A program made the translations under genes and the position numbers. Below the pieces are notes generated by a model that was given only the letters and a program-made list of their open reading frames with translations, had not been told where the DNA came from and did not search any database. This document shows, piece by piece, positions 3,034 to 56,302 of a stretch of DNA of 64,000 bases. Origin of the DNA: Eledone cirrhosa (Eukaryota); assembly GCA_964016885.1 (NCBI GenBank), contig OZ024742.1, positions 282,162,001-282,226,000 on the forward strand, given 5' to 3'. Position 1 is the first letter of the stretch; each line of letters opens with the position of its first letter.

Positions 3034-3069
<36 letters not shown>

Positions 3070-3135
3070 TATATACATATATTCATATGTATACATATAT
3101 ACATATTATATACATATATACATATTATATACACA

Positions 3136-3175
<40 letters not shown>

Positions 3176-3300
3176 TATATATATATGTGTGTGTATGTAT
3201 GTATATATATATATATATTATTTATATATATATTATACATATATCATATATATAGATACAAATATAATATATATATACATATAATATATAGGGAGAGATA

Positions 3301-3343
3301 AGTTGACAGCGCTGTTTCGTACTGTTTGGTACTTATCAAAACT
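3301..3343 (-). ncRNA. Type I hammerhead ribozyme motif, U3:A8 core variant
   Basis: Minus strand AGUU-UUGAUAA-GUAC caaaca GUAC-GAAA-CAGCGCUG-UC^-AACU. Confidence 0.75.
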
Positions 3344-3872
3344 CACTACTCTCCCCGTCTGCCGAAAATGATGTGTGTTGGATTCTTATAGAATTCCAGT
3401 AACAATCAGGAACTGATTTTACAGAGCGGTTGCCGGCCCAGCAGAAATTGAAAATTAGAATTGGTGCTCTGAAATAGCGATATATATATGAATGTATATA
3501 TAGTGTATTTTGTAATACACTGTATGCTTAATTAAAAGCATTTTGAAGACCATACGTTATCGTTTAAAAGTAGCGACATTGTCGCCTACTTAAATTTTCG
3601 GCAGACAGAGGAAGATAAGTTGACAGCGCTGTCTCGTACTGTTTGGTACTGATCAAAAGCATTTTGAAGACCATACGCTTTTAATTAAGCATACAGTGTA
3701 TTGCAAAATACACTATATATACATTTATATATATATTGCTATTTCAGAGCACCAATTCTAATTTTCAATTTCTGCTGGGCCGCCGACCACTCTGTAAAAT
3801 CAGTTCCTGGTTGTTACTGGAATTCTATAAGAATTCAACACACATAATTTTCGGCAGACGGGGAAAGTAGTG

Positions 3873-3915
3873 AGTTTTGATAAGTACCAAACAGTACGAA
3901 ACAGCGCTGTCAACT
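3873..3915 (+). ncRNA. Type I hammerhead ribozyme motif, U3:A8 core variant
   Basis: AGTT TTGATAA GTAC caaaca GTAC GAAA CAGCGCTG TC AACT. Stems I and II pair; stem III is palindromic as in minimal PLE HHRs. Confidence 0.75.
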
Positions 3916-4077
3916 TATCTCCCCCTCTCTGCCGAAAATGTAAGTAGACGACAATGTCGCTACTTTAAAACAATAGCGTATGGTCTTCAAAATGCTTTTA
4001 ATTAAGCATACAGTGTATTGCAAAATATACTATATATACATTCATATATATATATCGCTATTTCAGAGCTCCTGTTC

Positions 4078-4152
<75 letters not shown>

Positions 4153-4161
4153 GTTTATATG

Positions 4162-4212
<51 letters not shown>

Positions 4213-4218
<6 letters not shown>

Positions 4219-5156
4219 AGGATAAAAAGGACGATTGATTATTCCTTCATTGCATTTATTGATAGGTGACGCGCGTTTCGCCACTGATCAGCTCAAGATT
4301 CGATCTATATCGATCCTAGCCGACTCAATAATCGGCAGCTCGACGGACCCTCTTAAAATGCTATAAGAAAATGAAATACATGCTATGTGGTAAAGTCAGA
4401 GTTTCAAGAGTTTGACAAAATGAGATGTTTTGATTGGTGAGAAGGATCAAGGCGATGTACTGGCCTGTAGTGTATATGGGGGTGGGGGTGATGGTGAGAT
4501 GTTGGTGACGGTCTGTGGATGAGGTGGGCTGTGGTGTGTTGGTGGTGGGTTGGCCTTGGCGTGTAGAGTATGTGGGGGTGGATGTGAAGATATGGTGGTG
4601 GTTAAGGTTATTTAGTGGGATGGGCTGTGGTGTGAGGTTAGTGGATTGTCAGTAGACGGGTTGGCGTGTCGGTGGGGGTGTGGTAGTGGTGCCTTTGTCT
4701 ATGGTAGCGGCGTTTTTGGTGGTGTGGTGGATGAATTGGTGGCGTCATGTCCTTACATAGATACATAGTTAGACGCTCTTCGTCTGACAGATACCTTGTA
4801 TATACGTATACGTACACACATATATGTATATATGTGCACATATATTGTTGTATAAACACACACAACATAAGACACATACGCACATCCTTGCCCACACATA
4901 TCGGCATACGCTCACACACAGCCATATGTATATGTACACACATGTATGTGCATGAGCGCATGCGGACACGAATATGGAGAGTTGGGGAGTATCGGTGGGG
5001 GTGGCGAACGACAGAGATGGGAGGAAGGTGAGAGGCGATGTAGAAGGTGTTTTACATATATACATACACATACATACACATGGGTATGGGCACATGGACT
5101 CACACTCATGTATGCAAGATATACACATACACACTCGCACACACGTATACTCACAC

Positions 5157-5187
<31 letters not shown>

Positions 5188-6554
5188 TGTACCGACAACA
5201 CACACATACACGCACATATACACATACATGCACATATATGAGCTCACCTACACATACAGTCAGATTTACCCATATACATATATGTAGACGTACACATACA
5301 CACACATACACATACATATATACACACACATATGCATACACATACACATATATATATATACAGATATATATATACACACACAGAGACATATGTATATACA
5401 TGTGTTCACATACACACACATACAGATAATTTGCGTACACGCACGCACACTTAAAACGCCCGTATGAGTAAAATACTTACACACAGACACACACACTATT
5501 GTTGGTTGGGGAGTGGAGGTATGTTTTGTCGGTGTTGATGAAGTATGGAGTTGTGTTTTGTGGTGGTGGTGGTGGAGTTGTGAGGAACAAAAATATATAT
5601 ACCGGATCGAATACCGGTTAAAAGGTAACATAGGGAACGCGGGGGAAAAGCGTTTATGAACGTACGGCGATGTGTGATGTGGACATGGTGATGGTGGTGG
5701 TGCTGGGGTGATATGTTCGGCAAGATGATTACATTATTAGAGGTTACGGTGTGTTATATGGTAGGCAGACAGGGGGTGGGGGGTATATAATACAGTCGAT
5801 TTGGGAGCGAGGGATGATATGTGTTGATGATGTAATGATAATGATTGTTGAAGTATGTGGATGTATTTAGTGGTGGCGGTGGTTGTGTGTGCATGCGACA
5901 GTACAGTTACAGGGTCGAATTTAGCGTGGGGTTGCAAGTTAGGGTAGATGGAGGGAACATGGGGGGATGAGGATGTAGGCGTGTATGGTATGCACATGAC
6001 GATGTGTGGTGTGGTGGTGGTGGCGATGGTGTGATATGATCGACATTGTATTTACAAGGTCTCTTGTCATTGTGGATTGCAAGGTAGAACGTATCATATG
6101 GTACCGATTTAATACGATGCTGCACCACCACACCACAGCCCACCTCATCCACAGACCGTCACCAACATCTCACCATCACACCAACCCCCATATACACTAC
6201 AGGCCAGTACATCGCCTTGATCCTTCTCACCAATCAAAACATCTCATTTTGTCAAACTCTTGAAACTCTGACTTTACCACATAGCATGTATTTCATTTTC
6301 TTATAGCATTTTAAGAGGGTCCGTCGAGCTGCCGATTATTGAGTCGGGTAGGATCGATATAGATCGAACCTTGAGCTGATCAGTGGCGAAACGCGCGTCA
6401 CCTATCAATAAATGCAATGAAGGAATAATCAATCGTCCTTTTTATCCTTTCTATATTTTACACTATGTATAGCTCTACACATCATCACAGAAGTGAACCT
6501 AAACATCGAGTGCTCACCCGGGTGAACCTGCAGTAACTCCTAGTTACACCCACT

Positions 6555-6558
<4 letters not shown>
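4213..6558. mobile_element. Non-coding fold-back element: ~325-bp inverted arms (4213-4538 / 6129-6456), low-complexity interior, ~100-bp tail, in (TA)n
   Basis: Arms are near-perfect reverse complements (gaaaggataaaaaggacg... / ...cgtcctttttatcctttc). They contain the HHR-like 3' half GAAACGCGCGTC but no canonical CUGANGA. Same architecture as PLE inverted pseudo-LTR plus tail. Confidence 0.75.
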
Positions 6559-6600
<42 letters not shown>

Positions 6601-10841: not shown

Positions 10842-13226
10842 GATGACGTTTCGTTTACATGTATTTAGATATTTATTATTGTGTACCGCCCTGTTACGCG
10901 CGTTTCGCAGAGGACTGGCTCAGGGTCACCCATATTTGTACGAATGCCAATGAGTTCCAGCAGCTCATAAACATATGCAGATTTCTTTAAGAATCGAACT
11001 ACTTTAGCGTCGGTAAAGGCAAGGAGATGTGTAATGTTCACAAACACTAACAAGTGAGAAACGATTGCATTGTCGATTACTTCCCCCTGTTTTTGCCGAG
11101 TTAGGTAAGTGACGATGGTCACAACCATAAAATTCATAGCAAAAGGCCTTCAAATATCTTTCATAAACTTCCTGTATATTATTCAATACATATATAATAT
11201 TTGTATTGGTGCTCCTATATAGCGATATACATATAAATGTACCTATTGTACACTGAATAATATACGGGATGCTTATGAAAGACATGTGAAGGCCTTTCGC
11301 TATGAATTTTGTATGGGCCTATATAGAAGTCATTTCATAACCTTTCGAACAGCAAGGGTTATCCACCTATAAACATTTTTTTTCGAAATTTTTAATTTTT
11401 TAAATTACTTTCTCCATTCTTTTATTCTCCATTTTGTTCACTACCCTATCTTCCACCTTAATATAAGTTATTTCCGGTTACTTTCCCCGGCACATGTTGG
11501 AAAGTTGGTCCAACCCTAAGAAACATGTGTTCTTCTAATAGCTTCGTTGTAGTACTTTTCTTAATAATAATATATTAAAACTCGTCCCAAGGACTTGAGT
11601 TGTTTTATGCCCTGAATATCTCTACTAAGGTATTACTATGTATATATTTTTTTACTACTCTTCCTGTCTTAAAGTTGTCAAATGTTTGTTAAAGGTAACA
11701 CCTTATTTACAAGCTCCCTGAAAAGTTTGGGCACACAAGGATGGTGGGGATCCCACTAATAAAACAAGGAAAGAACGATCTGTTTCGATTCCCTCTCGAT
11801 ACTCAAAATTTTGTTAAAGGAAGGTATTGTGAATAGAAGGGAGAAAATAAATTCAAGTTATTAACAATGGTTCAAATATAATCGAATCGATAATCCAAAA
11901 GCCATGTATTTTCTTTGTGATGGTTCTAATAATTCTTTCTTACATAGGGACAATACCAGTAATTTTGTGGAATAGGACCCGAGTAAATTACTGGTATTTT
12001 ATTTTATCGACCCCAAAAAGATGAACGGCAAAGCTGTTCTTGTATGAACTCAGAACATAAATGCTACAAAGCATTTTGTACGACATTCTAATGATTCTGC
12101 CAATACACCGCCCTGATAGTACTAATAAACTAAATTATTCCTATTTTAAGGCTTTAGGCCATGAATTGCTGACTGATGAGTCCATCATCATAAAATATCA
12201 GCCTCTACCACGCAAACATGCTTTTTTGGGGTTCAAATCTCGCAGACGCTAACTTTATCTTTCCTCCTTTCTGCGTCGATATTGGGTGGATTGGCGTAAT
12301 TAAAGCGTGGGACAAGATGCCTCACAGTATTTTTACCGGTGCTTTGTGTGCTAAGTTCTTGGGTGGTAGACAAAATCCATTGCTCGGTTTAACACTGTCC
12401 CATGACCCTCCGGCTATTTTAGCAGATTCCACTTTTGCATGCATTTTAACCAGGTCTTCGATTTTCTCCATAATTTCCATAGATTTTAGAAGCCAGATCG
12501 CTTCTACGAACAGCGACGCCTGCTTTATATTCAGACCAAATGTTCACCAATCAGAACTGTTTTCGAATAAGCCATTTAATCGGTCAGAGGTGTCTCATCT
12601 CATCGCTGCTGCATATTTTGGTTCTTGAGCATACACAGAGGAATCTAGAAGTGTTTGGGGTCATACCGCTCGAAGAAGGTCAGGGAAGATCCATGTCAAT
12701 TTATGTAGAGTGTGTGAGGTTCATGATGCTGGACTCATTGGAAATTAAGGTGTTCAGAGCCATAATGGAGGAATGTCTTTGCGCCTCAACTAACACACGA
12801 TCAGGCCACCACAAACCAGAAGTAAACGAACTATCTACCTAAAGAGCTCCAGCAGAAAACGTGATCAATGTACCCCCCCCCCCGCTCTCTCTCTCTCTCT
12901 ATGTATATATATCCATCTGTTCTGTGTGTGTGCCCGTGTGTATCTATGCGCACGCAGATACACACATGCTAGAGGAGGGAGAAAAAAGAGAGAAAGAGAA
13001 GGGAGGCTGTGTTAGGAAGAGTCAGTCAGTCAGTAATACACACCTTAATAAGCCAGTAAAAGATTCGATGCCTGCATGGTGCTGAATAAATTATCTTGCT
13101 TAAAAACTGACATTATATCGATAAACGAACATAGACATATAACAACATCAACAGTAATAAGGGGAGAGGGATAAAAAGAAACAACAAATATAAGGAGCAA
13201 CAATAATACCAATAATAACTAGAGAT

Positions 13227-15554: not shown

Positions 15555-16090
15555 CTCTGCCGAAAATTATAGAGGCTCGATTCTTATAGAATTCCAGTAA
15601 TAACCAGGAACTGATTATACAGAGCGATTGCCGGTCCAGCAAAAGTTTAAAATTAGGATTGGTGCTCTGAGATAGCGATGTATATATGAATGTATGTATA
15701 GTATATATGGCAATATACCGTATGTTTAATTAAAAACATTTTGAAGACCTTGCGCTATTATTGCCAGATATAGTATACATACATTCATGTATACATCACT
15801 ATTTCAGAGCACCAATCCTAATTTTTAATTTTTGCTGGACCGGCAATCGCTCTGTATAATCAGTTGTTGATTATTACTGGAATTTTATAAGAATCCAGCC
15901 TCTATAATTTTCGGCTCTGAGGAACACCAACAGCGGGAAACAGATTCTGTCAGCTTCTCACCCTTCCTTTGCCGAAAAAAGAAGTAAGTGGCATAGACAC
16001 TACTTTAAAAATAATAGCGCAAGGTTTTCAAAATGTTTTTAATTAAACATACGGTATATTACCAAATATACTATACATACATTCATATAT
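15555..16090. mobile_element. Diverged family A retrozyme-like repeat, partial copy plus inverted ~300-bp unit; HHR motif at 15913-15955 (+)
   Basis: Homologous to 3355-3560 and its reverse complement. GGCT CTGAGGA acaccaacagcgg GAAA CAGATTCTG TC AGCT: canonical core, stem II degenerate. Confidence 0.7.
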
Positions 16091-18148
16091 ATATATATAT
16101 CCAAAATTAAAATTAAGAGTTGTCATGTCTGAGAGACATGCGCCATATCCACTGTAGAATAAGCTCAAAGATTCCAATGAATAGATCCGAGCATTACATA
16201 TCAACTAGAAATAGATTGACATACATATATATAAAATAAACATATGAAACAATCACAGGGAATAATTTGTAAAGAATGTAAGCACACATAGCTAGGTATG
16301 TAACTAATTAAAGTTTAACTAGAACTTCAAATATAGATACCTTTAAAAATGATTAATCTCCTAAATATTTCTTTAAGTAAGAAATATATTTCACCAATTA
16401 ATCCGTAAATCAAAGTGCGAGGAGGTTCTCGGAAAAGCTCTGGGCGACGACGACGAAATTGAACTGGCCAGTCTATTCCTGAGAACATTCGATCCGGAGA
16501 CAATGAACAACTTCCTGAAACCCCTAGCACGGCATTCCTACAGGGATGGGGGGGCACAGCCGTTTCAAGATAAATTCTTCTATTATTAGTTTGTCATTTA
16601 TCTGTTATCTTTTTACTCGATTTTCTTTCCGTAAACGCTCAATTTCTTTGGTTTTTTATATCGTCCCTTACATGTCGGCACTTGTAGGCAATAAAGAAAT
16701 CATGGTTATTACTGTGGTTTTTGTTATTGTTGTTGTTATAATTAAAAACAAAGGCAAGGCTCGACAAACGCAAATCCATTTAGTTTTTCAATGGGTATAA
16801 CGATAATAAATATCATATTTTAGATAGAATATCTTGTGGTAATGTTTGCCAAAACATGTGAATGAGTCTTTGAATGGCATATGTCAGACGTGGATCACTA
16901 CCCACTATAATCAGGCGATAATGAACTGTTTATAATGAGGTTCTGTTAAATGGATTAAGAAGGGAATTTTCTAATTTACTGTTGAAATTGAAACTCCACT
17001 ATTTTCTGGTGTAAAGTCTGTGTAAAGTTGGGTTTATGTGGATCTTTCTTCTGTTGCACTTGGCTGAGCAATCAAAAATGTTTATGTTTACCGGATGAGT
17101 AGTGTAAAACATACATACATACATACATACATACATACATACATACATACATACATACATACATACATACATACATACATTTACACTATATGTGCGTGTG
17201 TGTATGTTTGCACATATACAACACCTTTCGCGGTGAATATATACATACGCACTAACAGTAAATACCGACCATATATGCTGCCGTCTAAGTGTTCAAGACC
17301 TTAAGAACTGATACCCTACTAGGTTTACAGTTTCATTTGTGCCACTTTTTTAACAAGGAATGCTAAGAATGACATTTCGTGTGAAAGGAACCAACCTTCG
17401 TCTCAACCAAAAAGAAAAATATTACACAGGACATGCTATGTGAAATGTTTTAACTGTGGAATGGAAACTACATCACAAACACGGCTTTTCCAGCAGCTCA
17501 CTAATCTGTTCATAGTGTTCGAATCAACCGCTAACACAATCTCCAAAATATAAGAAGAACATTTTAGATATTGTATTGCTAAATACACTGTGTCTGAAAA
17601 TACGTTGCGATGCTCACGGCTGGAGCCTCTCAGGTCACTGATCTGGTTAATCAAAATAGATTTGGGGCTGAACAACTACATAAACTTCTGCTACTATTAG
17701 TAATTATTTCTGAATTTGGCACAAGGCCAGCATTTTATGGCAAGGGGAACTTGATTATGTCGACAACAGTACTTAACTGCGGTACTTTTATTTTATCGAC
17801 TCCAGACGGATGAATGGCGGGATTTCACCTGAGAAAGTAAAAAGGCCGGAAGAAATACCAAAGGTAATTTTGCCCAACATCCTCATGACTGCCAATTTAC
17901 AACCTTAATATACTATAGTTGTTCGATCAATGGAACAGGCTGTTCATAAAATTAACATGCAAGTGACTGAGCATGCATAGACATATGTACTGTTAATGCA
18001 ACCTTGTCACATATAGTGTGTTACGGACAATGCTTGATAATTACGTAAAAGGTATATACATTTTGGAATATTCAGCCACTTACATTATAAGATGGAGTAT
18101 ACCTGTAATTCAAAGTTTCATCACACAGATTCTGTCATGTTAAGGGTG

Positions 18149-21458: not shown

Positions 21459-22140
21459 TCAAGTTATAAATTGGGTGTTGAGTTCTAGTCTATTATTGAT
21501 TGGTGGTTGTGTTTTGTCTATAATTAGTGCTTCCTTAATTCTAAGATTGCCGAGGTTTCTTTCCTTAGTTTCTATCTTAACTGTTATGGTTTTGTCGGTG
21601 TTTTTGCATTTAACTAGGTGTTTCTTAAATGAAAAAGCGTTAGTATTGAGGTGTTTATTTATTCTTATGTGGAGTGGTCTGGTGGTGCTACCTACGTAGA
21701 AGTTGCTGCATTTGTCACACTCTAGTCTGTATACGACGTAAGCCTGGTGGCATAGGTCTGTGTTGTTGATGGGGCAGTTGGCTAGCCTGCAGCAGTTGTC
21801 ATGTCTGGTGGAGTGTCTTTTGGTTAGCTGTCCGCGTAGAGAAGGACCTGAGTGGGCCAGTTGGATATCTAGTCCCTCTCGTCTGATAGCTCTGCGGATG
21901 GCTGTTGTTGTTTCGTCACTGAAGTGTGGGAGCTTCAGGAAGCAAGTGTTAGTGCCTTGGGTGTGGTGTCCTCTTTTCTTTCTGGCACGGTTTGTGGTGG
22001 ATGTCGTGTATCCGTTGAGTTTGAGTACTTCCAGGAAATGTGTGGTGTGTGTGTCTCGGTCTCTAGCGTCGGTGCATTTGTTCCGATACGTGTAGTTCGT
22101 TCCTTATGTATCCGAACTTAGCGCCAGCTGGGAGGGCCGA
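21459..22140 (-). pseudogene. PLE RT C-terminus + GIY-YIG endonuclease (not in the ORF track)
   Basis: Manual translation: LKLNGY...FLKLPHFS..TTTAIRRAIRREGLDIQLAHSGPSLR...CPI....CHQAYVVYRLECDKCSNFYVGSTTRPLHIRINKH...LRIKEALII...QPPIN. Homologous to ORF 51597-52070. Confidence 0.85.
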
Positions 22141-22478
22141 TCTGAAATGTTCGTACATTTAAATAAATCTAAGGTAAAAGACTAATTTTCAACAATATAT
22201 TTTGCATTTGCATTCTTTATTATATGGCCATGCCTGCATTGTTTTGGCTTTATTATACATATACAAACGTTTATACCTCATTGCACAATGCTTCAAGTGA
22301 ACTATAACCTCCTCCATATATATATATATAGATTTTGAGTTTATGTTCGTTGTATACCAACACCTCAGTATGCAGGCTGCAGCACTCGACGAAGTGCGCA
22401 GGTTGGTTTGGTTACTCCGGAGTAGTGTAAAATAAAGTTAAATAAAAGTCAAATGATTAAAATTTAGCTTCGTTTATT

Positions 22479-22533
22479 ACTGCTATATATATTTCAGTGA
22501 CAGTAATCTTTGGCTGTGACCTCTTCAGGCAGT
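22479..22533 (-). ncRNA. Type I hammerhead ribozyme motif (same family as 32402/32673)
   Basis: Minus strand ACUGC-CUGAAGA-GGUCACAG...CUGUCACU-GAAA-UAUAUA-UA^-GCAGU. 22330-22650 is homologous to the 32345-32880 element. Confidence 0.75.
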
Positions 22534-23732
22534 TTGAATTAGTATGGTATAGACAAGTACATATGTTGTTTAGGTGTATAATATTGTCAATACTCTGATA
22601 TGCCCAGTTCCCTGTTGGGTTGTTATTTCAATGAGGAACTGGAGTCATATGAATTCAAACAAACGAATTTCAGTGTCAAAGGTCGTCTTCTCCTCTCATT
22701 GGTCAGTTATTAGAACATTCCTCATTCTAAGTGTTGTTATTGTTGGAGTTAGCTTAAAAATTGATAAAATGGTAGAAGGGACAAGGTGTTAAAGGAACAA
22801 AATAACAAAAAAAGTGTCAAACTTCCCATTGGTCAGTTCTGAGAGCATTCCTCAGTCAGAAGTCTATAGAATTCTTTCTGGGGTGAGGCTCCCTGTAGTG
22901 TTTTTGCCTGCTATTGTTCAGTACATTTGACCTCTACCATTATTTTGGTAGTGTTGTTGGTGTTGTGGTCAGCTTATATCTTGCTGCTGCTAACAATTTA
23001 GAAGTATCCAGTGTGTGTTTTTTCTTCATCCCTCTTGCCACCATCATAGTGGTTGTGGTGGGGGTGGGGGGTTCTTCTATGTATATGAAGAAATATAAGG
23101 CAATAAATGAAGAAAACAGAAAATAAATAAATAATATAATAAAATAATTAATATAATTTGTATAATTTGAAAATAAATAAATAAATAGAGAATAAAGAAT
23201 AAAGAATAAATGAAAAATTGGTGAAAAAGTAATGAAAATGAATATGGAGAAGTGAGAAATAATGTAGGATAAAGTGTGTGTGTGCTATAACCAATCTCAA
23301 GGTCAGAATATGTTGGATAGATTGGTATGAGACAAGATGTTAAGATGAGATAATCAAACTAAATGTGTTTGTGTCATAATCAATCTCAACTTTAAAATAA
23401 ATATAAGGTGATACAGTGAAGAGGGCAGAAAACAAATTACAAATTAATAAAGAGAAATCAAGATTTAAGATTGGAACTTGAAAATCAGAAATCTAGTAAA
23501 TTAAAAGTGTTTGTGTTATATAGATGTTGGCCAAATTATAATGGCTGTGTCCGATTCAATCTCTAGGCTATCATGGTGTCTGCTCAGCCTGGGTTGTTCC
23601 CTGTGGCTTGAGGGGAGTTCACAACCTAGGGTGTTGTTACTGCCCATATAGCTTGAGGGAGGTCTAGCCGAGAGGTGTTTTCATGTTCTTTAGAAGTTCC
23701 TATATCTTGAGGGGAGTTCACATCTTGTGTTG

Positions 23733-24497
23733 CTACTGTCCATATATCTTGAGAAAGGTCCCGGCTCTAAGGTGTCTGCATGTCCCGAAGAAGTCGGTTC
23801 TGAGGTTTATCAGGCCGCTTCCACCTCTTAGTATCTCGAGGGTCTCGTTCAGGCATAGTTTGCATATGCAAGATCCCCCTTTATCGGGTGGTACTTTCCT
23901 GATTATGTACCAGGCCAGAGAGTATGAGGTCCTGTCCAGCTTAAGCTTCCATATGAGGTCGGAGAGAGCTGTGCTTTTCCTTTTGGCCTCCTTCTTGAAT
24001 GAATGGCGATGGTTGTACCAGCGGTCTTTAAAGCTCGTTGATGTGGCTCCTATGTAGAGGTGTTCGGAGTTGGAGGTTTTAACCCTACAACCGTACACTA
24101 GGTTCTTCTTGAAGCATTCATTACCAAGGGGGCATGATTCGGAGTTTCTGCAGTTGCAGAGGGTGGTCGGCCTCTGCGTGCCTAGATTAGGGTTCCCGTT
24201 ATGTGTTACATGTTGGTCTTCCCCCAGGCTCGGTGGGGGATCCTCGGGTCTGTTTGGGTTTCTTAGATGGGCTCTGGGTCCCCCTTCCCTCCTTTCACAT
24301 GGTTCTGCTGAGTGTTTGTATTGCCATCTTCTGGTTGTGTGGTTTTTAAGCCTACTTCTGTTGATGCTAGCTATGTGTTGGGCCAAATTTCTCGTGGTGG
24401 AATACGAAAGCTTCACAGTGTGTCTGTTGAAGATCCTGTGGTATCTGTGGTCCCTCGGGAAGCATTTGTCAAGTGCTCCAAAGAATAATCGGGCCAA
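23733..24497 (-). pseudogene. PLE C-terminal region with GIY-YIG endonuclease (5'-truncated)
   Basis: FPRDHRYHRIFNRHTVKLSYS...CNCR....CPL...C....VY......YIGATSTSFKDRWYNHRHSF......TALS..IWKLK...CKLCLNE. This EN type is usually paired with YRDDG-type PLE RT. Confidence 0.85.
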
Positions 24498-24844
24498 GCT
24501 TTTCTTTAGGGCTGCTGAGTAGGGTGGGTTGTACCACGTGATTTTTCGGTGTCTCCTCCTATATGTGTGGGTCGGGGGCTTCGTGATTTGTTGGAGATTT
24601 GTTGGGTTGCTGGTGGTTTCCGCACTGTTGCTTCCCCTTTGGGCTCTATGCTTTTTGTTATCTTCGCGGCCCGAATTTGTGGTGTGGTCGTTGTCCGCCC
24701 CGGGAGATCCATCGGGGGTGGTCGCCCGTTACCCCCCCCCCCCCACGTGTCCTGCTGTTGGGGTCGTCCGTCCTGGCGTGGTTAGCGTCACGCCTGAGAC
24801 TGCTACTCATATTGTATTTTTTAAGCTTCTTATCATGTTTCCCT

Positions 24845-25034: not shown

Positions 25035-26515
25035 TTTCTTTTTATTTGCCACCAGGTCATCAAAAAGTGGGACAAGTACAATGAGGGGAGTTTACATAAA
25101 AAGGCGTCCTCAATAAGGAGGAGGCAATAACAAGATATAAAAATAAAATAAAATATAACAAAAATAAATTTAATAACAAAATCCTCAATAGGGAAGAGGC
25201 GCCTTTGGGGATGACACCCCCCCCCCCCCACAAAAAAAAGTGTGAACCCTTCTCCTCAGGAGCACAGAGAGGGGGTGCTCCCTTGATCTTTCATCTTCCT
25301 CACCTGTAGTCTGATGTACAGTGAAGGCCCATTCACACGGGCCATTCTCGCGACTTTCACCCATCTTTCATAAAAACGGCTGGGGTGCAGTACCTCTCTC
25401 TCCATCCTGATGCTTCTTCCGAAATGATATCGGAAGAAACGGACCAGTTGTTGGCCAGAGAGAAAGGTGTGTGACCTCAGTCCTTTTAGACGCGTCCACC
25501 ATACAACCTCTTTCGCCATGGATATTACGCACAGAAACACCGCCTCTCCTTCGTTTTTGAAGAGGGGAGGCGGCTTGATCGTTACAATAGACTCGGTGGT
25601 CAACCGGATCGGTCCACCCTTGACAGCAGTTGTTCGACATAGCCCCACAGAAGCGCAATGCCCGAGCAGTGTACCAATGCGTGTGCAACGGTTTCCTCGT
25701 CGCACACGCATCTGGGACAGATCTTTTTCGAGGGGTCCCTACCCGGGCTCCCGTGTCTGTAGAGCCTTTCTCGAACGGGCAGAGCCCCTCGGTAGCACTG
25801 CCAGGCCAGGGACCTCTGGAAGTTATCCATGGGTCCCGGGCTGAATGTCCTACCGAACAGGTTGGCCAGTTCGTCTTCCTCCATGCCTAGGGCTTCTCCG
25901 AGGGCGTCGTCGCACCTGCTACTACCAGCCCTCTATAGAATGACAAGGTGGAGTCTCCACTGACAGCCGGGTCCGCCTGCCAGAGAGCCGTGAGCGCCTG
26001 GGCACACTCGGTGTGCCAGGAGCCCAGTTTTCTCGGTCTTTGCTTGACCCATAATTGCAGTTCGGTGAGCGAGACGAGTCTGGGAAAGGCTCGCCTCACA
26101 AACGGGACCCACACCGGTTGACCGGTGAGGAATACCTGGAGGTGCCGTAGCCTTAGTGCGTGTTTACGTATCATTAGCCACGGCATCTCCAGCCCTCCTT
26201 TCGAAGGGTGTTGACAGCAGATGGATCTCCTCACCATAGGAGCCCGCTTCTTCCAAAGGCATTGGAAGAGTGCGCGCTCCATTTTGGCGAGCGTTTCCCT
26301 TGGTAGTAGATGACGGACGCTATATAAGTGTTCGCCACCTCCGCCCGACCTTTCAGGGACAGTTTGCACTCGTCCCACTTCTGGGTCAGTGCAAACACCC
26401 TGTTCGTTACCTCACCCCAGTTCTTCTCCACCTGGAGATCTGGTCCGAACCAGACCCCGAGCAACTTCACCGGGCCCTCCGTCCAGCGCCCGACGACGCC
26501 ATCGGAGGGCATCGA
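25035..26515 (-). mobile_element. 5'-truncated Tx1/L1-clade LINE (RT C-terminus, zinc finger, 3' UTR), frameshifted
   Basis: VKLLGVWFG, LSLKGRA, PSKGGLEMP, CPRC...ETVAHALVHC. Homologous to 42390-43777. 3' end aaataaaaaagaaag followed by (TATC)n/(TC)n. Confidence 0.9.
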
Positions 26516-30039: not shown

Positions 30040-30480
30040 TTTCGCTTCTGAATTTGTTTAGCAAGATTCTTTATCTGAAAACGTGTGTCGAAACCGATAT
30101 TGTTATGCTTTGGGAGGGTCATGTTGCCAATAAGAAATACACGCACCAGGTGCTTTCACTCCAATTTATTATAAATTAAATTTATGAATTTAAGAATTTA
30201 TAAATTTCCGGTTGGTTGGTTGGTTCCACAACCGGACGATTGTTCATATATTGTCAAAGTTCTTTCGTCACACATTCTGTGACCTCTTCAGTGACAGGTG
30301 ATTATTTTCTTTGTTTTGTGCCTCTCCTTTGTTCTGTCCTACGCCATCTAGGACAGAACAAAGGAGAGGCACAAAACAAAGAAAATAATCACCTGTCACT
30401 GAAGAGGTCACAGAATGTGTGACGAAAGAACTTTGACAATATATGAACAACCATCCGATTGTGGAACCAACCAATCAACA
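30040..30480. mobile_element. Family C fold-back element: tail + ~130-bp inverted arms centred at 30345 with two opposed hammerheads (30252-30296 minus, 30394-30438 plus)
   Basis: TGTCA CTGAAGA G GTCACA gaatg TGTGAC GAAA GAAC TT TGACA, identical on both strands. Related copies at 29396-29580, 36570-36745 and 54370-54730. Confidence 0.85.
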
Positions 30481-32344: not shown

Positions 32345-33004
<660 letters not shown>

Positions 33005-36567: not shown

Positions 36568-36749
36568 TTGTTATACTTGGGGAGGGTCATATTTGTGTAA
36601 TATTGCCAGAATTAATAACAGAACACACTCACTGTTTGGTTGGTTTTCGCTTTTCGCTTCTGTGTCTTTTATATAAACAAGTATAACAATATTTGTTTCG
36701 ATACACGATTTCATATCAAAAACCTCGCAAAACTAATTCATCGCCGTTA

Positions 36750-37034
36750 TATATATATGAATGTATGTATAGTATATTTGGCAATATACCGTATGTTTGA
36801 TTAAAAACATTTAGAAGACCATTCGCTATCAGTTTTAAAGTAGTGACTATGTCACTTATTTACTTATTTTCGGCAAAGGCTGGAAGAGAGGCTAACAGCT
36901 GGTTCTCGCTGGTTGGCGTTTATCAAAGCCCCGCACTCACCTACCTTTGCCGAAAATTATACAGTAAAAGCTGGATTCTTATAAAATTCCACTAATAATC
37001 AGGAGCTGATTACACACAGCGATTGCCGGTCCGG

Positions 37035-37035
<1 letters not shown>
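36750..37035 (-). mobile_element. Family A copy, circularly permuted; HHR-like motif at 36890-36930
   Basis: Segment order is rotated relative to 3293-3617. Minus strand GGCU-UUGAUAA-A CGC caacca GCG A-GAAC-CAGCUG-UU-AGCC (A15.1 altered). Confidence 0.65.
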
Positions 37036-37089
<54 letters not shown>

Positions 37090-37461
37090 TGAGTCAAGTG
37101 GCGTCTTCTCTTCTTGTTGGCCTATCTCTTACTATTTTCGTTTACTGACTTAGGATGTTGTGTTTTTCTCCTTTCAGCATGTATCTAAGTGGCAACTGGA
37201 CAATTATTTTTCCTATTTCTGGATCGTAAGGACCTTTCTTTCTTCCATTGTTCCCACAGTATTATCGTATATTTCTCGTCTGTATGTGTCATTTGTCTAA
37301 CGCCAGGGAAGTTAACAGCAATATCAGTGCCCGACTTTGAATATATTTTTTCTTTTGCCTAACTGTCCTTGTTGTAAACTTAGGTATTTAAACAAATTGT
37401 TTTCGAATATTAATTCTGTCTGTTTTATTCTGTATTCTTCGGAATTTACACACAGGTAATT

Positions 37462-37920
37462 ATGCACACAAAGTCCACCAAAAGGAAAGTAATCAAAACA
37501 CTAGTGTGGCCGGTAGATCTATATGGTTGTGAGTCAAGGACTTTAAAGGCATTTGACTTCAAACGATTGAGTAGTGCCTTTGAAATGTCATGCTATAGGC
37601 ATGCGCTCAGAATTAGCTGGACAGCTCACAGGACAAATGAATCTGCCCTGGAAGAGTTTAGTGTCAATCGACAGTTGGTTGAAACAGTAAAGAAGAGGAA
37701 ACTTCAGTATTTTGGTCATGTCATCATGACCCGAAATTTGACTACCCGAATCCTAGAGGAACGAATACAAGGGAAACGGACCAAGGGACGGCAGAAGAGG
37801 ATATGGACAGATGATATTAAGGAATGGACAAGAAGGAGTTTGGCGGAAGTACGGCAATGGTAAGAGACAGGAAAATGGAGAGTGCTGGTCCATAAGATAT
37901 GAGGATGAGATGAGAGAGAG
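37462..37920 (+). pseudogene. RTE/BovB-type LINE 3' fragment
   Basis: TLVWPV.LYGCES.TL....KRL..AFEM.CYR..LRISW...RTN...VKKRKLQYFGH...GKR.KGR....W.DDIKEW. Confidence 0.85.
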
Positions 37921-39675: not shown

Positions 39676-42600
39676 CGCAAACACAACCAAAACAAGAACA
39701 ACAAAGCAACCTGCAAGCACAGTCCCACCCAACCCTACTCCACCTAAAACCACTGCAAAAACACCCACAAACACAACAGCTCCCCAAAACATACCCCTTC
39801 CAAATAACACAGACACTACAACGGACGAGGCCCCCACATCATCACCAAGTGATGATGAGGGAGAGCCTCTCCGTTCGAAAAGAAAGAAGAAAAGACACCA
39901 CAAGAACAAAAAAACAACAAACATCACTACAAACATACAACCACCAACACAAACAACACAAACATTACAAATAAAAACCCCGTCCCGAAAACAAAACCAC
40001 GACATCACTCCAAACACAAACACCTACTACAAAACGAAAGCTCCCACAAGAACAACAGACAAAAACCATCGCAACACAACAAGAACATTACACATACATA
40101 AACAGTAAAAATAAAACTTTAAAGGAGGTCATCTCCAACGACCCTTCGGTGAAAACCGAAGGGAAAACTTTTTCGAACTGTGCAGACAAACCTAATTTAA
40201 AAATGATTAGGGTCCCTACGGACACCTATAAGTTTTTAAAGGTAAACTTTCCTAAGGACGTGGGTAATCCTTGTGTTAAATCCATTAACCGCGTCCTTTA
40301 AAAAAAGTTTCCACACCCTCACCTCAGACACCCCCACCCCACCAAACATCTCCGCCCCCACCCCGCCGGAAACCACCACCCACCAGACAACTCCTCTAAC
40401 ATCCCCATGGAAACCGTGCGGCCTGATCCCCGGGAGACGAAGAGGTGAGTGTTTTCTTCTCCTCTTTTAACTTTTCAGAACCAACATGGCCAATATAAGA
40501 GTTGGGTGTGTGAATGTACGCGGCCTGGGGATGCCCTCGAAACAGGGCAAACTCTTAAACGACCTCAGGTCGCACAGTATGGATGTAGTAGCCATTTGCG
40601 AATCCAGGATCCACAGCGAGCGACAGCTGGCCCCCATCTTCGATGACTTTGAGATCTACGCATCTCTCTGTCAGCCGGGGGTGGGGGCAGGGTTGCCGTT
40701 TTGCTGCGGAAACACCTGGGCCTCGTAACACAGACGGTACATCTGGACCCGGAGGGTCAACTGGTGGTCCTAGACGTTGACAGTAGTGAAGGTGGAGGCT
40801 TCAGGCTGGTGGCCGCATATGCCCCATCCGGGACACCGCGGCCAGACTTCTTCAAACGTCTAGAGACTTTTCTGGGAACGTCCGCTCCTTGCTTTTAGTG
40901 GGGGACTGGAATGGATTCCTAGATGCACGTTGGGACTATGTGGGAGCATGTCCCGATAAAGGGGGGTGTAACATCCTCAAACAGTTAATCGGCCGATTTG
41001 ACCTGGCCGATAGATATCGACTATATTTTCCGACTGTGCCACTGTGGACGTGGACTAATCGTAGCGGAACATCTAGATCGTACCTAGATAGGGTTCTAGT
41101 TAGAAATAAGGATAGGGACATGTTAAGCTGTCCACAAATGTTCATGGTTGCCTATTCAGATCACAAACTAGTGACCTGCATGGTCAACCTTGATAGAACC
41201 CATAGACAAGGACCCGGCTACTGGAAGCTGAACTTGTCGTTACCGAAATGCAAAGCCTACAGTAGACGGATTAGCAATTTAGTTAAACAGCACTTGACAG
41301 GGGCCATTGTCGACAACAGATGGTGGTACTCTCTCAAGAGGGCAGTTAGATTAGACTCGTTAGTTTTTAGTAAAGAATTACCGTTAGATAGAAATAGAAC
41401 TGAGAAAGAACTGGTAGATTAAGTAGAAGAGGCAATTAGAAGCGGCAACTTAGCCAGCGTGCTAGCAACCAGAACGGCCTTGGACCAGTTCTTCGAGGCA
41501 AAGCATGAAGTCTGCGTTGTCAGAAGAAAAATACGTGCTCTGGGAAACGAGGGAGCCAAAGTTGTTAGCTGGGCCCGGGTGACGGAGGCAAAAAGTGGCA
41601 ACAAGTCCACGATTCGGTCTTTGAAGTACCAAAACGGACGCGTGATACGTGAGCCGAAGCAGATGTGTGCGGCCCTTTCAGCAGCACATTGCTCAGCTGT
41701 TCGGGCAGGGCGGCGCGCCGGGAGGGGCTATGGATTTCGGTCAATACCTCGACGGCCTACTGCGACTCTCGGATAGCAAGGCAAAGTTCTGCGAAAAGTC
41801 GATTTCAGCCGCTGAGATAGGGGTCGCGTTGAGCCAATACGGCAAACACAAATCTCCAGGTCTCGACGGTCTACCCTACGAATTTTACGTAGCAATGCCG
41901 GACTTATTCTCCGGTCTCCTGGAAGCGGTCTACTGCAAGTGGCAACCGAACGGGAGAATTCCTAGTTCTGTGACCGGGGGAGTAGTCACACCAGTCAGGA
42001 AGGACGAGAATAAGGGGGATGACATAGGCATCTTCCGGCCCATAACTCTGCTAAACACAGAGTTACAGATTTTGGCCAAGGTGTTGGAAAAGAGGCTGGC
42101 GCTTGTCGTCGGGAACCTCCATTCGACAAGGATGCCTCCTCTCCTCCCTTCTGTACGTATTGACTCTCGAGCCACTACTGCGGAAGTTGGAGCTATTGCA
42201 GGGCATCCCTCTGGAACCGGGACTGCGGAAAGCGGCGTCGGCCTACGCAGACGACGTGACAGTAATGGTGTCGAGCGCCTCGCAAATCGAGTAAGTCGGC
42301 ACCTTACTGAAGGAATACGAAAGGTTCACAGGAGCGAAGCTGAACCGGGACAAGTCCATCGGTTTGCAACTCGGATCGTGGAGAGGCAGACCGATGCCTT
42401 CCGATGGCGTCGTCGGACGCTGGACGGAAGGACCAGTAAAGCTGCTCGGGGTCTGGTTTGGTCCGGACCTCCAGGTGGAGAAGAACTGAAACGAGGTGTC
42501 GGCCAAGGTGTTTGCACTCTCCCAGAAGTGGGCCGAGTGCAAACTATCCTTGAAAGGTCGAGCGGAGGTGGCGAACACTTTTATAGTGTCCGCCATCTAC

Positions 42601-43777
42601 TACCGCTTGACCGTCGTGCCTTGTCCATCCAAAACGCTCGCCAAAATGGAGCGCGCGCTCTTCCAATTCCTTTGGAAGAGGCGGGCTTCTATGTTGAGAA
42701 GATCCATCTCTACGTATTCCTCACCGGACAACCGGTGTGAGCCCCGTTCGTGAGGCGAGCCAGCCCACGACTCGTCTCGCTGACCGAGCTGCAGTCTTGG
42801 GTCAAGCAAAGACCGAGGAAAATGGGCGACTGGCACATCGAATGTGCTCAGGCGCTCACAGCCCTCTGGCAGGGGAACCCGGCGATCAGTGGAGACTCCA
42901 CTTCGTCATTCTATAGAGGGTTGATCCGCAGCAGGTGAGACGACGTGCTCGGTGAAACTCTGGGCGTAGAGGAAGACGAACTGGCCAGTCTGTTCGGTAG
43001 GACCTTCCGCCCAGGACCGATGGACAACTTCCAAAAGTCCCTGGCCTGGCAGTGCTACTGAGAGCCTTTACCAGTTCGAGACAAGCTCTATAGACATAGG
43101 CGCCCGGGCAGGGACCCTGCAAAAAAGATCTGTCCGAGGTGCGTGCGTGACGAAGAAACCGTCGCGCACGTATTCATACACTGCCCGGGCGTTACCGACC
43201 TGTAGGGCTATGTAGAAAGACTATTGTCGTGGGTGGGACCAATCCGGTTGACCATCGAGTCCATTGTCATGATCAAACCGCCACCTCCTTCAAAAACGAA
43301 GGAGAGGCGGTTTTCCTTTGTGTGATAGCTATGGCAAAAGAGGTTGTATGGTGGACAAGGTTGAAGGGGCTGAGGTCAGACACCTTTCTCTCCGGCCAAC
43401 AACTGATTCTTTTTTTCAAATACCATTTTGGAAGAAGAATCAGGATGGAGAGAGAGGTGCTGTACCCTAGCAAGTTTTATGAAAGGTGGGTGAAAGTGGC
43501 GAGAATGGCCCGAATGAATGGGCCTTCTCTCTATATCAGCCTGTAGGTTGAGGAAAAGGAGGAGGAGAGGAAAGGAGTACAAAATCTTCGAACTCCTGGA
43601 GATGAGGGTTGCACATTTTTGGGAGGTATGTGTTACCCATATGAACTGTCTCCCCTATTGGGGAAAACGACTAATTTTTAAATTGCATTTCTGATATTTT
43701 ACACGTTTTTATTGTATGTAAACCTCCCCCTTTGTATTTGTCCCCTTCTTTTGTGCCCCTGTGGCTAATAAAGAAAC
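39583..43777 (+). mobile_element. Tx1/L1-clade LINE, long decayed copy (possible ORF1 remnant + ORF2 + 3' UTR)
   Basis: ORF2 pieces described below. T/P/K-rich region upstream. 3' end ...ctgtggctaataaagaaa matches the copy at 25035. The 5' boundary is approximate. Confidence 0.85.
40486..43546 (+). pseudogene. Tx1-type ORF2: APE endonuclease + RT + C-terminal zinc finger, with frameshifts, stops and an internal RT deletion
   Basis: NVRGL, AICE, YAP, GDWN, YLDR, SDH, GPGYWKLN, KSPGLDGLPYEFY, FRPITLLN, RQGC.LS.LLY, YADD, CPRC...ET..H...HC. Confidence 0.9.
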
Positions 43778-50480: not shown

Positions 50481-51596
50481 ACATACAATAGTAAATATAG
50501 AATAATGCAAATGCACGTGAGAAGACAACTACATTCAAGGATTAGAATTAGTAGAAGCTGAATCAGTCGATTAACAACCCTAAGAGGGAGAGTAAGTGAA
50601 GGAAGTTCGGCAGAACAACTCCTACCCATGGAAGTATTTATGAAAAGAAATAGAGAACTAATGGTCTAGCAATAAAGGAGGGGTTGACGTTTAGCTATAA
50701 AAACAGGGTCAACCGTGTTAGAAACTCAATTTCGGTTTTGATCAAGGAGAGAAAAAACACCAGCATCGTCCTAGATGTTACGTTAGCATGCCATGTAAGT
50801 GGGAAGAATGAATGTCTTGGAACCTATCCCACATTGCTTTGAATACCACAGGATCCTCACAGATTTCAAGATATAATATATCAGTGGCATGTATATTCTA
50901 TGCAACAAGTATATATATACAGTATATATATAATATATATATATATATATGTAAATATCTTTAAGTCGTTTGGAAGCCTCGACAATGCAAATGGGTAAAT
51001 CTCCGGGTAACAAGGTTCGGTCGTGGAGAGAGAGATGTAAGTGGGTGTACGTTGAGATGCGTGGTGTGTATAAGATGTGTGAGATGTGTAGAATGAAGGG
51101 AAGAGTATCCAGGATAAAAATAAAAATAACAACACAAGAGAGAGTTACCTTGGGAGAGATTTAATAGTCCCTATATATTTCGGATTCACATCCATCAACT
51201 GGGGTTTTTTTCCGGGGTGGGGGAAAAGGTTGTCTGTCGGACAAGTCCGGAACGCGTCTTTCGCTGTTTGTTGTTTTGAATATCTGAGGTATTCGGCAGA
51301 GCGCGCGTGCGCGTGAAATGGGGTCGGTCGTACAGAGGTCAGCGGCCGAATGAGGGAGTGGGATGGCGCTAGCTGTCAGTCCATTCTCTGCCTGTTTGTT
51401 AAATGTTACTGTGTGTGTGCGTGTGTTGTTGTCTCGCTTGAGTGTGTGTGTGTATGTGTTGTTGCCTTGTTCATCTGTATTGGCAGTGTAGTATGTTCGT
51501 ATGGTGGAATGCTACTGTGTGTGTTTGCATGTGTGTGTGTAGTTGTCTCGTTTGCGTGTGTGTGTGTGTGCGTGTGTTGTTGCATCGCTTGTTAAA

Positions 51597-52165
51597 TTAA
51601 ACCAGCCATTTCATTTCGCTTCTCTCTGATCGGTTGTTTATTTGCGGTTGCAGTCGTTTGATAAAAAGCGCTTCCTTGATACGTAACGTGCCGACGTTTC
51701 TTTCAGTCGCTAGAATTGTGACAATGGGCCTTCCGTCTTTGTTTCCGCATTTGTCTATGTGTTTCCGGAAAGACGAGGCCCTGGTTTTAGTGTGTTCCTT
51801 GATCCGGATGTGCAAAGGTCGAATTGTGCTACCTATGTAGTATTGGTTGCACCTGTCACATTCTATGTTATACACGACGTATGTGCGTAGGCAACAGTTA
51901 GCATGGCGTATCGGGCATTCTCTGATGGAGCATGCGTCAGTAGATTTTTCGGGTTTCCTGGAGAGGCATCTTCGCAGGGAGGGGGCCGAGTGGGCCAGGT
52001 GGATGTCGAGGCCCTCCCTCCGTATAGCCTTGCGGATAGCGTTGGTGGTTTTCTCGCCCAGGTGTGGCATTTTAAGGAAGCACTTGCCTTGGGTGCTTCT
52101 CTGTCTCTTGCGTCTGGTGTCTCCTATTCTGTCTGTGATCGAGGTAGTGTACCCGTTCGTCTCTC
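51597..52165 (-). pseudogene. PLE GIY-YIG endonuclease, open but 5'-truncated frame
   Basis: CPI....C....VVYNIECDRCNQYYIGSTIRPLHIRIKEH...LRIKEALFIKRLQPQIN. Confidence 0.9.
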
Positions 52166-52259
52166 TACCGAATACCTCAGATATTCAAAACAACAAACAG
52201 CGAAAGACGCGTTCCGGACTTGTCCGACAGACAACCTTTTCCCCCACCCCGGAAAAAAA

Positions 52260-52295
52260 CCCCAGTTGATGGATGTGAATCCGAAATATATAGGG
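52260..52295 (+). ncRNA. Hammerhead-like motif with non-canonical core CAGUUGA (mirror copy at 51169-51204 minus)
   Basis: CCC CAGTTGA T GGAT gtga ATCC GAAA TATA TA GGG. Confidence 0.5.
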
Positions 52296-52548
52296 ACTAT
52301 TAAATCTCTCCCAAGGTAACTCTCTCTTGTGTTGTTATTTTTATTTTTATCCTTTATACTCTTCCCTTCATTCTACACATCTCACACATCTTATACACAC
52401 CACGCATCTCAACGTACACCCACTTACATCTCTCTCTCCACCACCGGACCTTGTTACCCGGAGATTTACCCATTTGCATTGTCGAGGCTTCCAAACGACT
52501 TAAAGATATTTACTTATTGTTCCACAATGCTTCAAGCAAACTTCAATA

Positions 52549-52603
<55 letters not shown>

Positions 52604-56059: not shown

Positions 56060-56272
56060 GCCCGCTTGGACCAAAGTATAACTGAACTTGTATTCGTGGA
56101 CAAAGAGCGCTGCTCCCTAATTAATAGACTACAAATGACTGTGATAGCTGGTACCTTCAAAATTTGCAAAATATTCTTGCGATTCAAGGGATGACAATTT
56201 CTCTTGTTTTACAACCTTGCCACCAGGAAGGTGGCCGGTCAAAACTTTACTCGAAATTAAGAGAAAGAGAAA
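56060..56272 (+). mobile_element. R4/Dong-like LINE 3' fragment (second subfamily) flanked by (CATA)n
   Basis: ELVFVDKERCSLINRLQMTVIAGTFKICKIFL* aligns with KLVFTGTERTELVRKLHVQSINGTVKICKTFQ at the end of ORF 57632-58426. Confidence 0.7.
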
Positions 56273-56302
56273 CATACATACATACATACATAATACATAC
56301 AT

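Follow-up and report, generated by a model that had tools for sequence, protein, structure and literature searches.

A 317-nt hammerhead ribozyme repeat in Eledone cirrhosa with the features of non-LTR retrozymes and non-autonomous PLEs

Introduction

Hammerhead ribozymes lie in satellite units of about 330 bp in Schistosoma (Sm-alpha) and in a cricket (pDo500). They are also found in retrozymes, whose circular RNAs have been shown in coral, mussel and axolotl (PMC7229834). That proteins of Penelope-like elements (PLEs) mobilise retrozymes has been argued because the two occur together and are related through pLTRs. How this happens was left open in a preprint (Li, Clavereau & Pollet 2026, bioRxiv 10.64898/2026.07.22.740005) that files such elements in vertebrates as PLE derivatives, and whose accessible text mentions neither tails nor inverted pairs. 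The PLE anatomy described by Craig 2021 comprises partial tandems, an inverted copy, a tail at one end and a TA bias (PMC8557442). Frangieh 2024 reported that a PLE enzyme cuts and extends both strands of AT-rich DNA, and that the genomic tail is the distance between two internal RNA start sites of the reverse transcriptase (RT). In vitro, PLE ribozyme mutants still inserted, unprocessed RNA was the main substrate and cleavage was dispensable (PMC11167929). A palindromic helix III is known from PLE hammerheads, and the U3-A8 variant has been reported in Cercyon PLEs of Schistosoma (Cervera & de la Pena 2014, PMC4209133). A Penelope expansion has been noted in coleoids, in a paper whose accessible text does not include the 317-nt family reported here (PMC8967140). 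The family was not found in the literature on octopus and cephalopod ribozymes, PLEs and retrozyme satellites, a search that left Repbase, Dfam and paper supplements outside its scope.

Results and Discussion

Structure of the locus and its hammerhead motif

The window is the whole 64,000-nt stretch of DNA that was analysed; its features are collected in Table 1. The host genome is 3.0 Gb in size and rich in TA microsatellites, and a PLE protein encoded nearby has mollusc neighbours, which fits an octopus-like cephalopod. The repeat unit was defined as the reverse complement of window positions 3296-3612 (317 nt, ribozyme sense), so that u1 is position 3612 and u317 is position 3296. A 46-nt segment (3296-3341) recurs at 3613-3658 with 95.7% identity at a period of 317. 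The original prediction had described a hammerhead repeated with a 317-bp period, its second copy mutated and truncated, and the second copy indeed carries two core changes and has lost part of stem I. The inverted segment said to read through the unit junction for about 1.25 units does so for 1.27 units, and the GUC at the predicted cleavage position (3911/3912) was confirmed in the sequence; the coordinates of that prediction all hold. The left arm has an atypical 3' end, in which the usual final ~130 nt are absent. A contig of unassembled reads covers 3533-3676, including the filler region, with zero differences; the read contigs used for this junction came from three runs of one sample and are possibly the assembly's own source. 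As a rough sign, the read contigs of that one sample contain much more of u100-160 than of the A-type ribozyme part.

Table 1. Sequence features of the 64-kb window
Feature	Positions	Strand	Details
(TA)n flank, left	3036..3290	.	from sequence
Left arm	3290..3658	-	1.15 units, from u272 to roughly u3
Intact type I hammerhead motif	3305..3339	-	U3-A8 core; descriptor scan
Second hammerhead copy	3618..3658	-	two core changes; 5' strand of stem I absent
Filler at head-to-head junction	3652..3677	-	26 nt, u57-82
Right (inverted) arm	3677..4082	+	u74 across junction to u160; 406 nt = 1.27 units; ends at tail site
Long stem enclosing hammerhead	3848..3938	+	predicted fold, z -5.4
Intact hammerhead motif	3877..3911	+	predicted cut 3911/3912; GUC = 3909-3911; descriptor scan
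Tail delimited by the fixed 3' end sites u133 and u160	4056..4082	+	~27 nt
(TA)n flank, right	4082..4215	.	from sequence
Another inverted-pair element	4196-4544 and 6123-6560		hammerhead-like palindromic helix III; two 3' ends ~105 nt apart
Older subfamily E copy	10950..11320		plus arm to ~11190, inverted arm from ~11196; absent from the original prediction
Subfamily B head-to-head pair	15556..16096		minus arm 15556-15758, plus arm 15759-16096; C3-G8 core; plus arm ends u133
Penelope/Poseidon-type GIY-YIG fragment	21459-22103	-	family with minimal hammerhead, 44-nt tail
Neptune-type PLE 3' part with GIY-YIG frame	22330-24728	-	minimal hammerhead 22528-22484; two 3' ends 99 nt apart
Second inverted pair with Neptune-type PLE motif type	32345-32784
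Subfamily C copy	36745..37036	-	0.9 unit, ends u133; decayed hammerhead
GIY-YIG-bearing PLE fragment, head-to-head	50947-52555		frame 51597-52184, minus; 40-nt tail on one arm only; both ends (TA)n

The unit has a GC content of 37%. Read round and round, its longest stop-free frame is 63 codons and its longest ATG frame 32 codons, which agrees with the claim that it has no ORF; a tRNA gene was sought in the unit and none was found. Folded as a circle, the unit is predicted to reach -81.9 kcal/mol (z -5.9, 64% paired), and the antisense strand folds nearly as strongly (z -5.1). Each arm, and thus each orientation, holds one intact hammerhead motif; the left arm has a second one that is broken. 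Two consecutive complete ribozymes are absent from the window locus. It cannot release a monomer, and the window copy is a dead-end insertion.

The motif has the type I build, with a U3-A8 core, a 4-bp stem II, a palindromic stem III and a 7-bp stem I; the core begins at u274 and the predicted cut falls after u308. A descriptor scan of the 64-kb window gave four hammerhead-like matches, two of which are the intact motifs of the locus. The exact 35-position motif pattern occurs 38 times in the genome, compared to none for the reversed control. No hammerhead was matched in Rfam (one search returned 8 hits with no ribozyme, and another had none among the 150 listed of 215). The catalytic fold differs from the minimum-energy fold of the isolated 52-mer motif. 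Since there is no Rfam match and the catalytic fold is not the one of minimum energy, we only infer ribozyme activity, which would likely involve a dimer or a protein.

The core is of the U3-A8 type in four related subfamilies (A, C, D and E) and of the C3-G8 type in a fifth (B). Both sides have changed in 7 of 13 pairs across subfamilies, and the hammerhead stems and the 3-8 pair covary between them. Paired cells in the motif stems amount to 92.6%, against at most 42% in slid controls. The covariation set consisted of 24 hand-picked motifs from subfamilies A-D chosen by a pattern that requires the core, and its shuffle control was inflated by the relatedness of the motifs. The comparison suggests that the ribozyme is under selection. 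At least five further, unrelated hammerhead families with C3-G8 and U3-A8 cores recur in the flanks of loci L001-L366; the genome holds a large unsurveyed collection of ribozyme repeats.

Subfamilies and copy sets

The five subfamilies, A to E, are spread genome-wide, and the unit length is 295-335 nt in all of them. First-look candidates numbered 2326, 3234, 2816, 1837 and 1190, figures that overlap between subfamilies and are all lower bounds. Random sampling, which covered 200 kb in stretches spaced evenly over the genome and 205 kb in PLE loci, gave 0 matches to the unit. For this reason the copy sets consist only of top-scored search matches, which are biased to young and long copies. Two further segments of the window (15763-16090 and 36750-37035) had been read as copies of the same circle. 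Both are related copies, and the plus arm at 15759-16096 repeats after about 299 nt as claimed, but they belong to other subfamilies (B and C), are only 74-75% identical to the 317-nt unit, and the second has no internal repeat within 36745-37036. The window also contains a perfect palindrome of ~100 nt (30293-30397), one arm of which adjoins a unit copy at another locus (L013) too. Decayed LINE fragments at 56128-58426, 40790-42740, 25256-26411 and 37414-37863 are, we take it from their motifs, RTE/Dong-like and L1/Tx1-like.

Two fixed 3' ends, paired arms and TA targets

The 3' ends of subfamily A were mapped in 104 distinct arms of at least 80 nt from 90 loci. Fifty-one of the 104 end at u124-137 (site S), which is the end of an internal TA run, and 38 end at u153-167 (site T); the other 15 end elsewhere, and the left arm of the window locus is among them. 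Hence 89/104 arms have fixed 3' ends, at sites ~27 nt apart. Both sites also serve as ends in subfamilies B, C, D and E, and the window copies end at u133, u133 and u160. The 5' ends of subfamily A arms are spread over the entire unit. An apparent pile-up of 5' ends at u5-15 in the first copy set is in part due to query bias and was retested with the second-round stops below. The original prediction held that copies start at different points of the same circle and proposed a genome-wide check of their start points. The 5' ends do vary in this way, but the 3' ends are fixed in 89 of the 104 arms; with fixed starts and variable stops, the permutation is therefore not free.

Head-to-head pairs make up 82 of 167 distinct insertions (from 240 loci). 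Both ends could be classified in 57 pairs: 56 have one S and one T end, one is T/T and none is S/S, where independent ends would give about half mixed pairs. The remaining 25/82 have at least one unclassifiable end. Two fixed 3' ends with one-of-each pairing are, by analogy with described PLEs, the PLE 'tail' signature of two internal reverse-transcription starts. A TA-type flank was found in 113/167 insertions. Target-site duplications of non-LTR retrozymes, when present, are longer than 4 bp. Among the 54 insertions with non-TA flanks, only 3 have a duplication of at least 8 nt (control, 1.2%). At one head-to-head pair outside a microsatellite (L162:1162-1720) the target is duplicated over 13 bp, including an overlap of 4 nt with the element at either end. 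The sequence that recurs after u160 was considered as partner sequence and rejected, as it is the target repeat at this locus.

Two-site 3' ends, 5' truncation, partial tandems and inverted copies, which are features of non-autonomous PLEs, are thus all present. With its partial tandems and its head-to-head pairs, whose ends fall at two fixed points within TA microsatellites, the repeat is therefore a likely PLE parasite. We consider it very probable that the 317-nt hammerhead repeat is a non-autonomous PLE (a non-LTR retrozyme) that would be copied by a borrowed PLE enzyme into (TA)n. The circular RNA of the original prediction would be a putative product of the unit. The predicted ORF-less hammerhead unit of the retrozyme type, mobilised by PLEs, thus gains support from the motif, the two 3' ends, the pairing and the TA targets.

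In the mechanism that we propose, a PLE reverse transcriptase-endonuclease borrowed from a helper would copy the 317-nt repeat into (TA)n. The helper would nick both strands of TA-rich DNA, and each nicked 3' end would prime cDNA at one of two internal RNA sites, u133 or u160. Both cDNAs would extend back across the ribozyme and the unit junction and end at variable points before being joined head to head. The template pool, of which we are less sure, may be mixed: linear RNA with a 5' end made by the upstream ribozyme, plus circles or multimers that are longer and uncut. The chance that the copies passing the second cut site came from circles is about even.

RNA template and long arrays

A cut-to-cut linear monomer was excluded as the template: 91 of the 104 subfamily A arms cross the cut site once or more and 22 cross it twice, so that the prediction of a template longer than one such monomer is upheld. 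Two complete motifs (the 'active' criterion of Li 2026) are held by 13/104 arms. Minor alleles are common to both rounds of one arm in 26/32 cases (control, 719/2789) and to both arms of one pair in 100/118 (control, 2740/10896); therefore each insertion has one source type. In subfamily D (42 arms, 30 loci), where arms reach 1160 nt or 3.6 units and cross the cut site up to three times, divergence is 4.3% between within-arm repeats, 3.7% between arms and 4.5% between loci. With equal divergence at the three levels, the short tandems are therefore as old as the insertion. At one locus (L303) a neighbour pair is identical (0/224 sites differ), which stems either from duplication at a later time or from the assembly. 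Read-through of the cut site with repeats of insertion age means that the template was a circle or an uncut multimer.

Second-round stops were located in 30 subfamily A arms chosen for covering 1.2 units, many of whose loci overlap the first A set. Ten end before they reach u20 on the second round. Of the 20 arms that reach it, 12 stop at u5-20 and 3 at u299-307, and only 5 extend >10 nt past the cut site. This strong stop lies just 3' of the cut site, at a distance of 14-29 nt, where it coincides with the long stem's 3' strand. It would be expected if many templates began at an upstream cut; a stall at the stem would also produce it. The second-round stop and one DNA-expanded array argue against a pure circle.

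The D-like subfamilies contain arrays of about 35, 41, 28, 14.5, 6 and 5 units, and of these only the 41-unit array does not finish at S or T. Two of them, with 35 and 14.5 units, are star-like: pairwise divergence is 12-13% at every separation, adjacent units are not significantly closer (p 0.09 and 0.06), and the two majority sequences are 2 sites apart. In the 35-unit array, the distance between the inverted arm and the units is similar to that among the units themselves. Such arrays are consistent with one-step deposition and also with fast early expansion. The 28-unit array (L333-L334, G000:C14:23499109-23508239) has 3- and 12-unit higher-order repeats and 28 nearly identical ribozyme motifs, which make it the best candidate for a currently processable locus. 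Its interior units are 1.7% apart, and its end pieces and inverted arm are 4-8% away; this indicates local DNA-level expansion after insertion. The 41-unit array is a mosaic of linked variants and appears to have grown at the DNA level after insertion as well. Shaping by local duplication, a satellite trait, is thus seen in the 28- and 41-unit arrays and is not seen in the two others or at most loci. Long arrays were considered as proof of rolling-circle copying, and this argument is weakened by the DNA-level growth of the 28-unit array. The arrays are thus no proof of rolling copying, and the main conclusion does not depend on them.

Two readings keep the same element and differ in the template. 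In one of them there is no circle: head-to-tail arrays grown as DNA would be transcribed into uncut or 5'-cut linear multimers, and the ribozyme would only trim 5' ends. We put this somewhat below an even chance. The D-like arrays of about 14, 28, 35 and 41 units could supply such transcripts, and the local expansion of one and the mosaic structure of another, the identical neighbour pair at L303 and the second-round stop near the cut site all point the same way, as does the in vitro insertion of PLE ribozyme mutants with unprocessed RNA as the main substrate (PMC11167929). Against it, a 715-nt query gave no subfamily A array of more than ~2.2 units (a lower bound) in its 40 best-scored candidates, two arrays (35 and 14.5 units) are star-like with no unit-to-unit match between them, and the array units nearest to dispersed D copies are still 4-6% away.

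In the other reading, which is the model of the original prediction with fixed start sites added, the main route is rolling reverse transcription round a ribozyme-made monomer circle; it is plausible with the balance tilted slightly against it. The double crossings and double motifs of the A arms and the insertion-aged repeats of D arms with up to three crossings are what it would produce; long star-like arrays that have the right PLE ends and an inverted arm as partner, the unit length kept in five subfamilies, and the retrozyme circles of other animals (PMC7229834) also favour it. The second-round stop at u5-20 speaks against this route, and DNA-level growth accounts for at least two of the four long arrays.

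A more specific proposal is that a PLE dimer, with a subunit at each start site, uses one ribozyme-made RNA circle to prime the two strands of a cut and can roll round it for 1 to ~35 units per event, seeding new hammerhead satellites. We regard it as less likely than not. If asymmetric double priming is true, the near-absolute rule of one short and one tailed end in pairs would be its genomic footprint.

Coding PLEs and the search for a helper

The PLE-parasite reading calls for a helper, and candidates for the PLE endonuclease number tens of thousands in the genome. Coding PLEs of this genome likewise end at two sites within TA, and their tails measure about 40, 44 and 99 nt. The ~27-nt tail of the unit differs from all four families measured (40, 44, 99 and 105 nt). 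No similarity of the unit ends to coding PLEs was found (0 matches in 60 loci of two coding families). No coding partner is attached to the subfamily E copies at the loci examined, and none was found at L060, L028 and L298. Our nearer guess for the helper, by tail length and ribozyme-to-start distance, would be a Penelope/Poseidon-type PLE. The Neptune-type PLE family, for its part, is young and abundant, with open frames near 900 aa elsewhere in the genome.

The copies could in principle be merely the terminal repeats (pLTRs) of 5'-truncated coding PLEs, the case named in the original prediction as the one that would overturn it. Their ends, targets and inversions are those of coding PLEs, which have many endonuclease candidates in this genome, and their 3' ends are indeed fixed. 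Followed upstream from the 3' end, however, the copies re-enter the unit, up to 41 times over, and never an ORF. An ORF for RT and GIY-YIG between the repeats was sought, and no ORF-bearing version was seen among the copies examined. An all-versus-all comparison found no upstream flank common to copies among 60 loci, and neighbouring Neptune-type pieces have their own ends or the opposite orientation. This explanation is largely refuted and we consider it very improbable. A DNA-level foldback or MITE-like repeat with an accidental hammerhead likeness, to which the inverted arms and the missing Rfam hammerhead match might point, is hardly credible given arms that are unequal in length and 5'-variable, unlike terminal inverted repeats, and a core and three stems that covary.

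Comparison with known systems

The family carries the insertion signature itself, in the form of two start sites, strict one-of-each pairing and cut-site read-through. It would offer a minimal substrate of 317 nt, with exact predicted start sites, for a circle-versus-linear test in the PLE assay that already exists in vitro.

The long arrays are partly satellite-like, and newt satellite 2, by its description, likewise has a hammerhead satellite unit of ~330 bp (PMC7229834). Non-autonomous PLEs of Chlamys such as MRC1 are also non-coding PLE parasites with multicopy head-to-tail insertions (PMC8557442). In the accessible account they mostly lack hammerheads and have 3' ends that resemble those of their helpers, whereas no helper similarity was found here. 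PLEs with pLTR hammerheads, as far as their published descriptions were available, share with the 317-nt family two sites for the 3' end, at about 140 and 170 nt downstream of the ribozyme, as well as 5' truncation, the partial tandem, the inverted copy, the AT-rich target, U3-A8 and the palindromic helix III; the 317-nt family differs from them in having no RT-endonuclease ORF.

Animal non-LTR retrozymes resemble the family in their type I hammerhead, in a low-GC (under 45-50%), ORF-less and strongly self-paired unit of 150-450 nt, in the occurrence of monomers, dimers and multimers, and in coexistence with PLEs (PMC7229834; bioRxiv 10.64898/2026.07.22.740005). Compared with the retrozymes of these accessible accounts, the 317-nt family has a U3-A8 core in four of five subfamilies and a long stem extension with no recognisable loop I, and it occurs mostly as head-to-head (TA)n pairs of 1-2 units with two fixed ends, an arrangement those accounts do not describe. 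Judged by sequence, the 317-nt family shows the hammerhead, tandem unit, composition and self-pairing of non-LTR retrozymes and the ends, truncation, inverted copies and targets of non-autonomous PLEs, and our verdict is that it would be classed as a new family of the known animal non-LTR retrozymes/non-autonomous PLEs.
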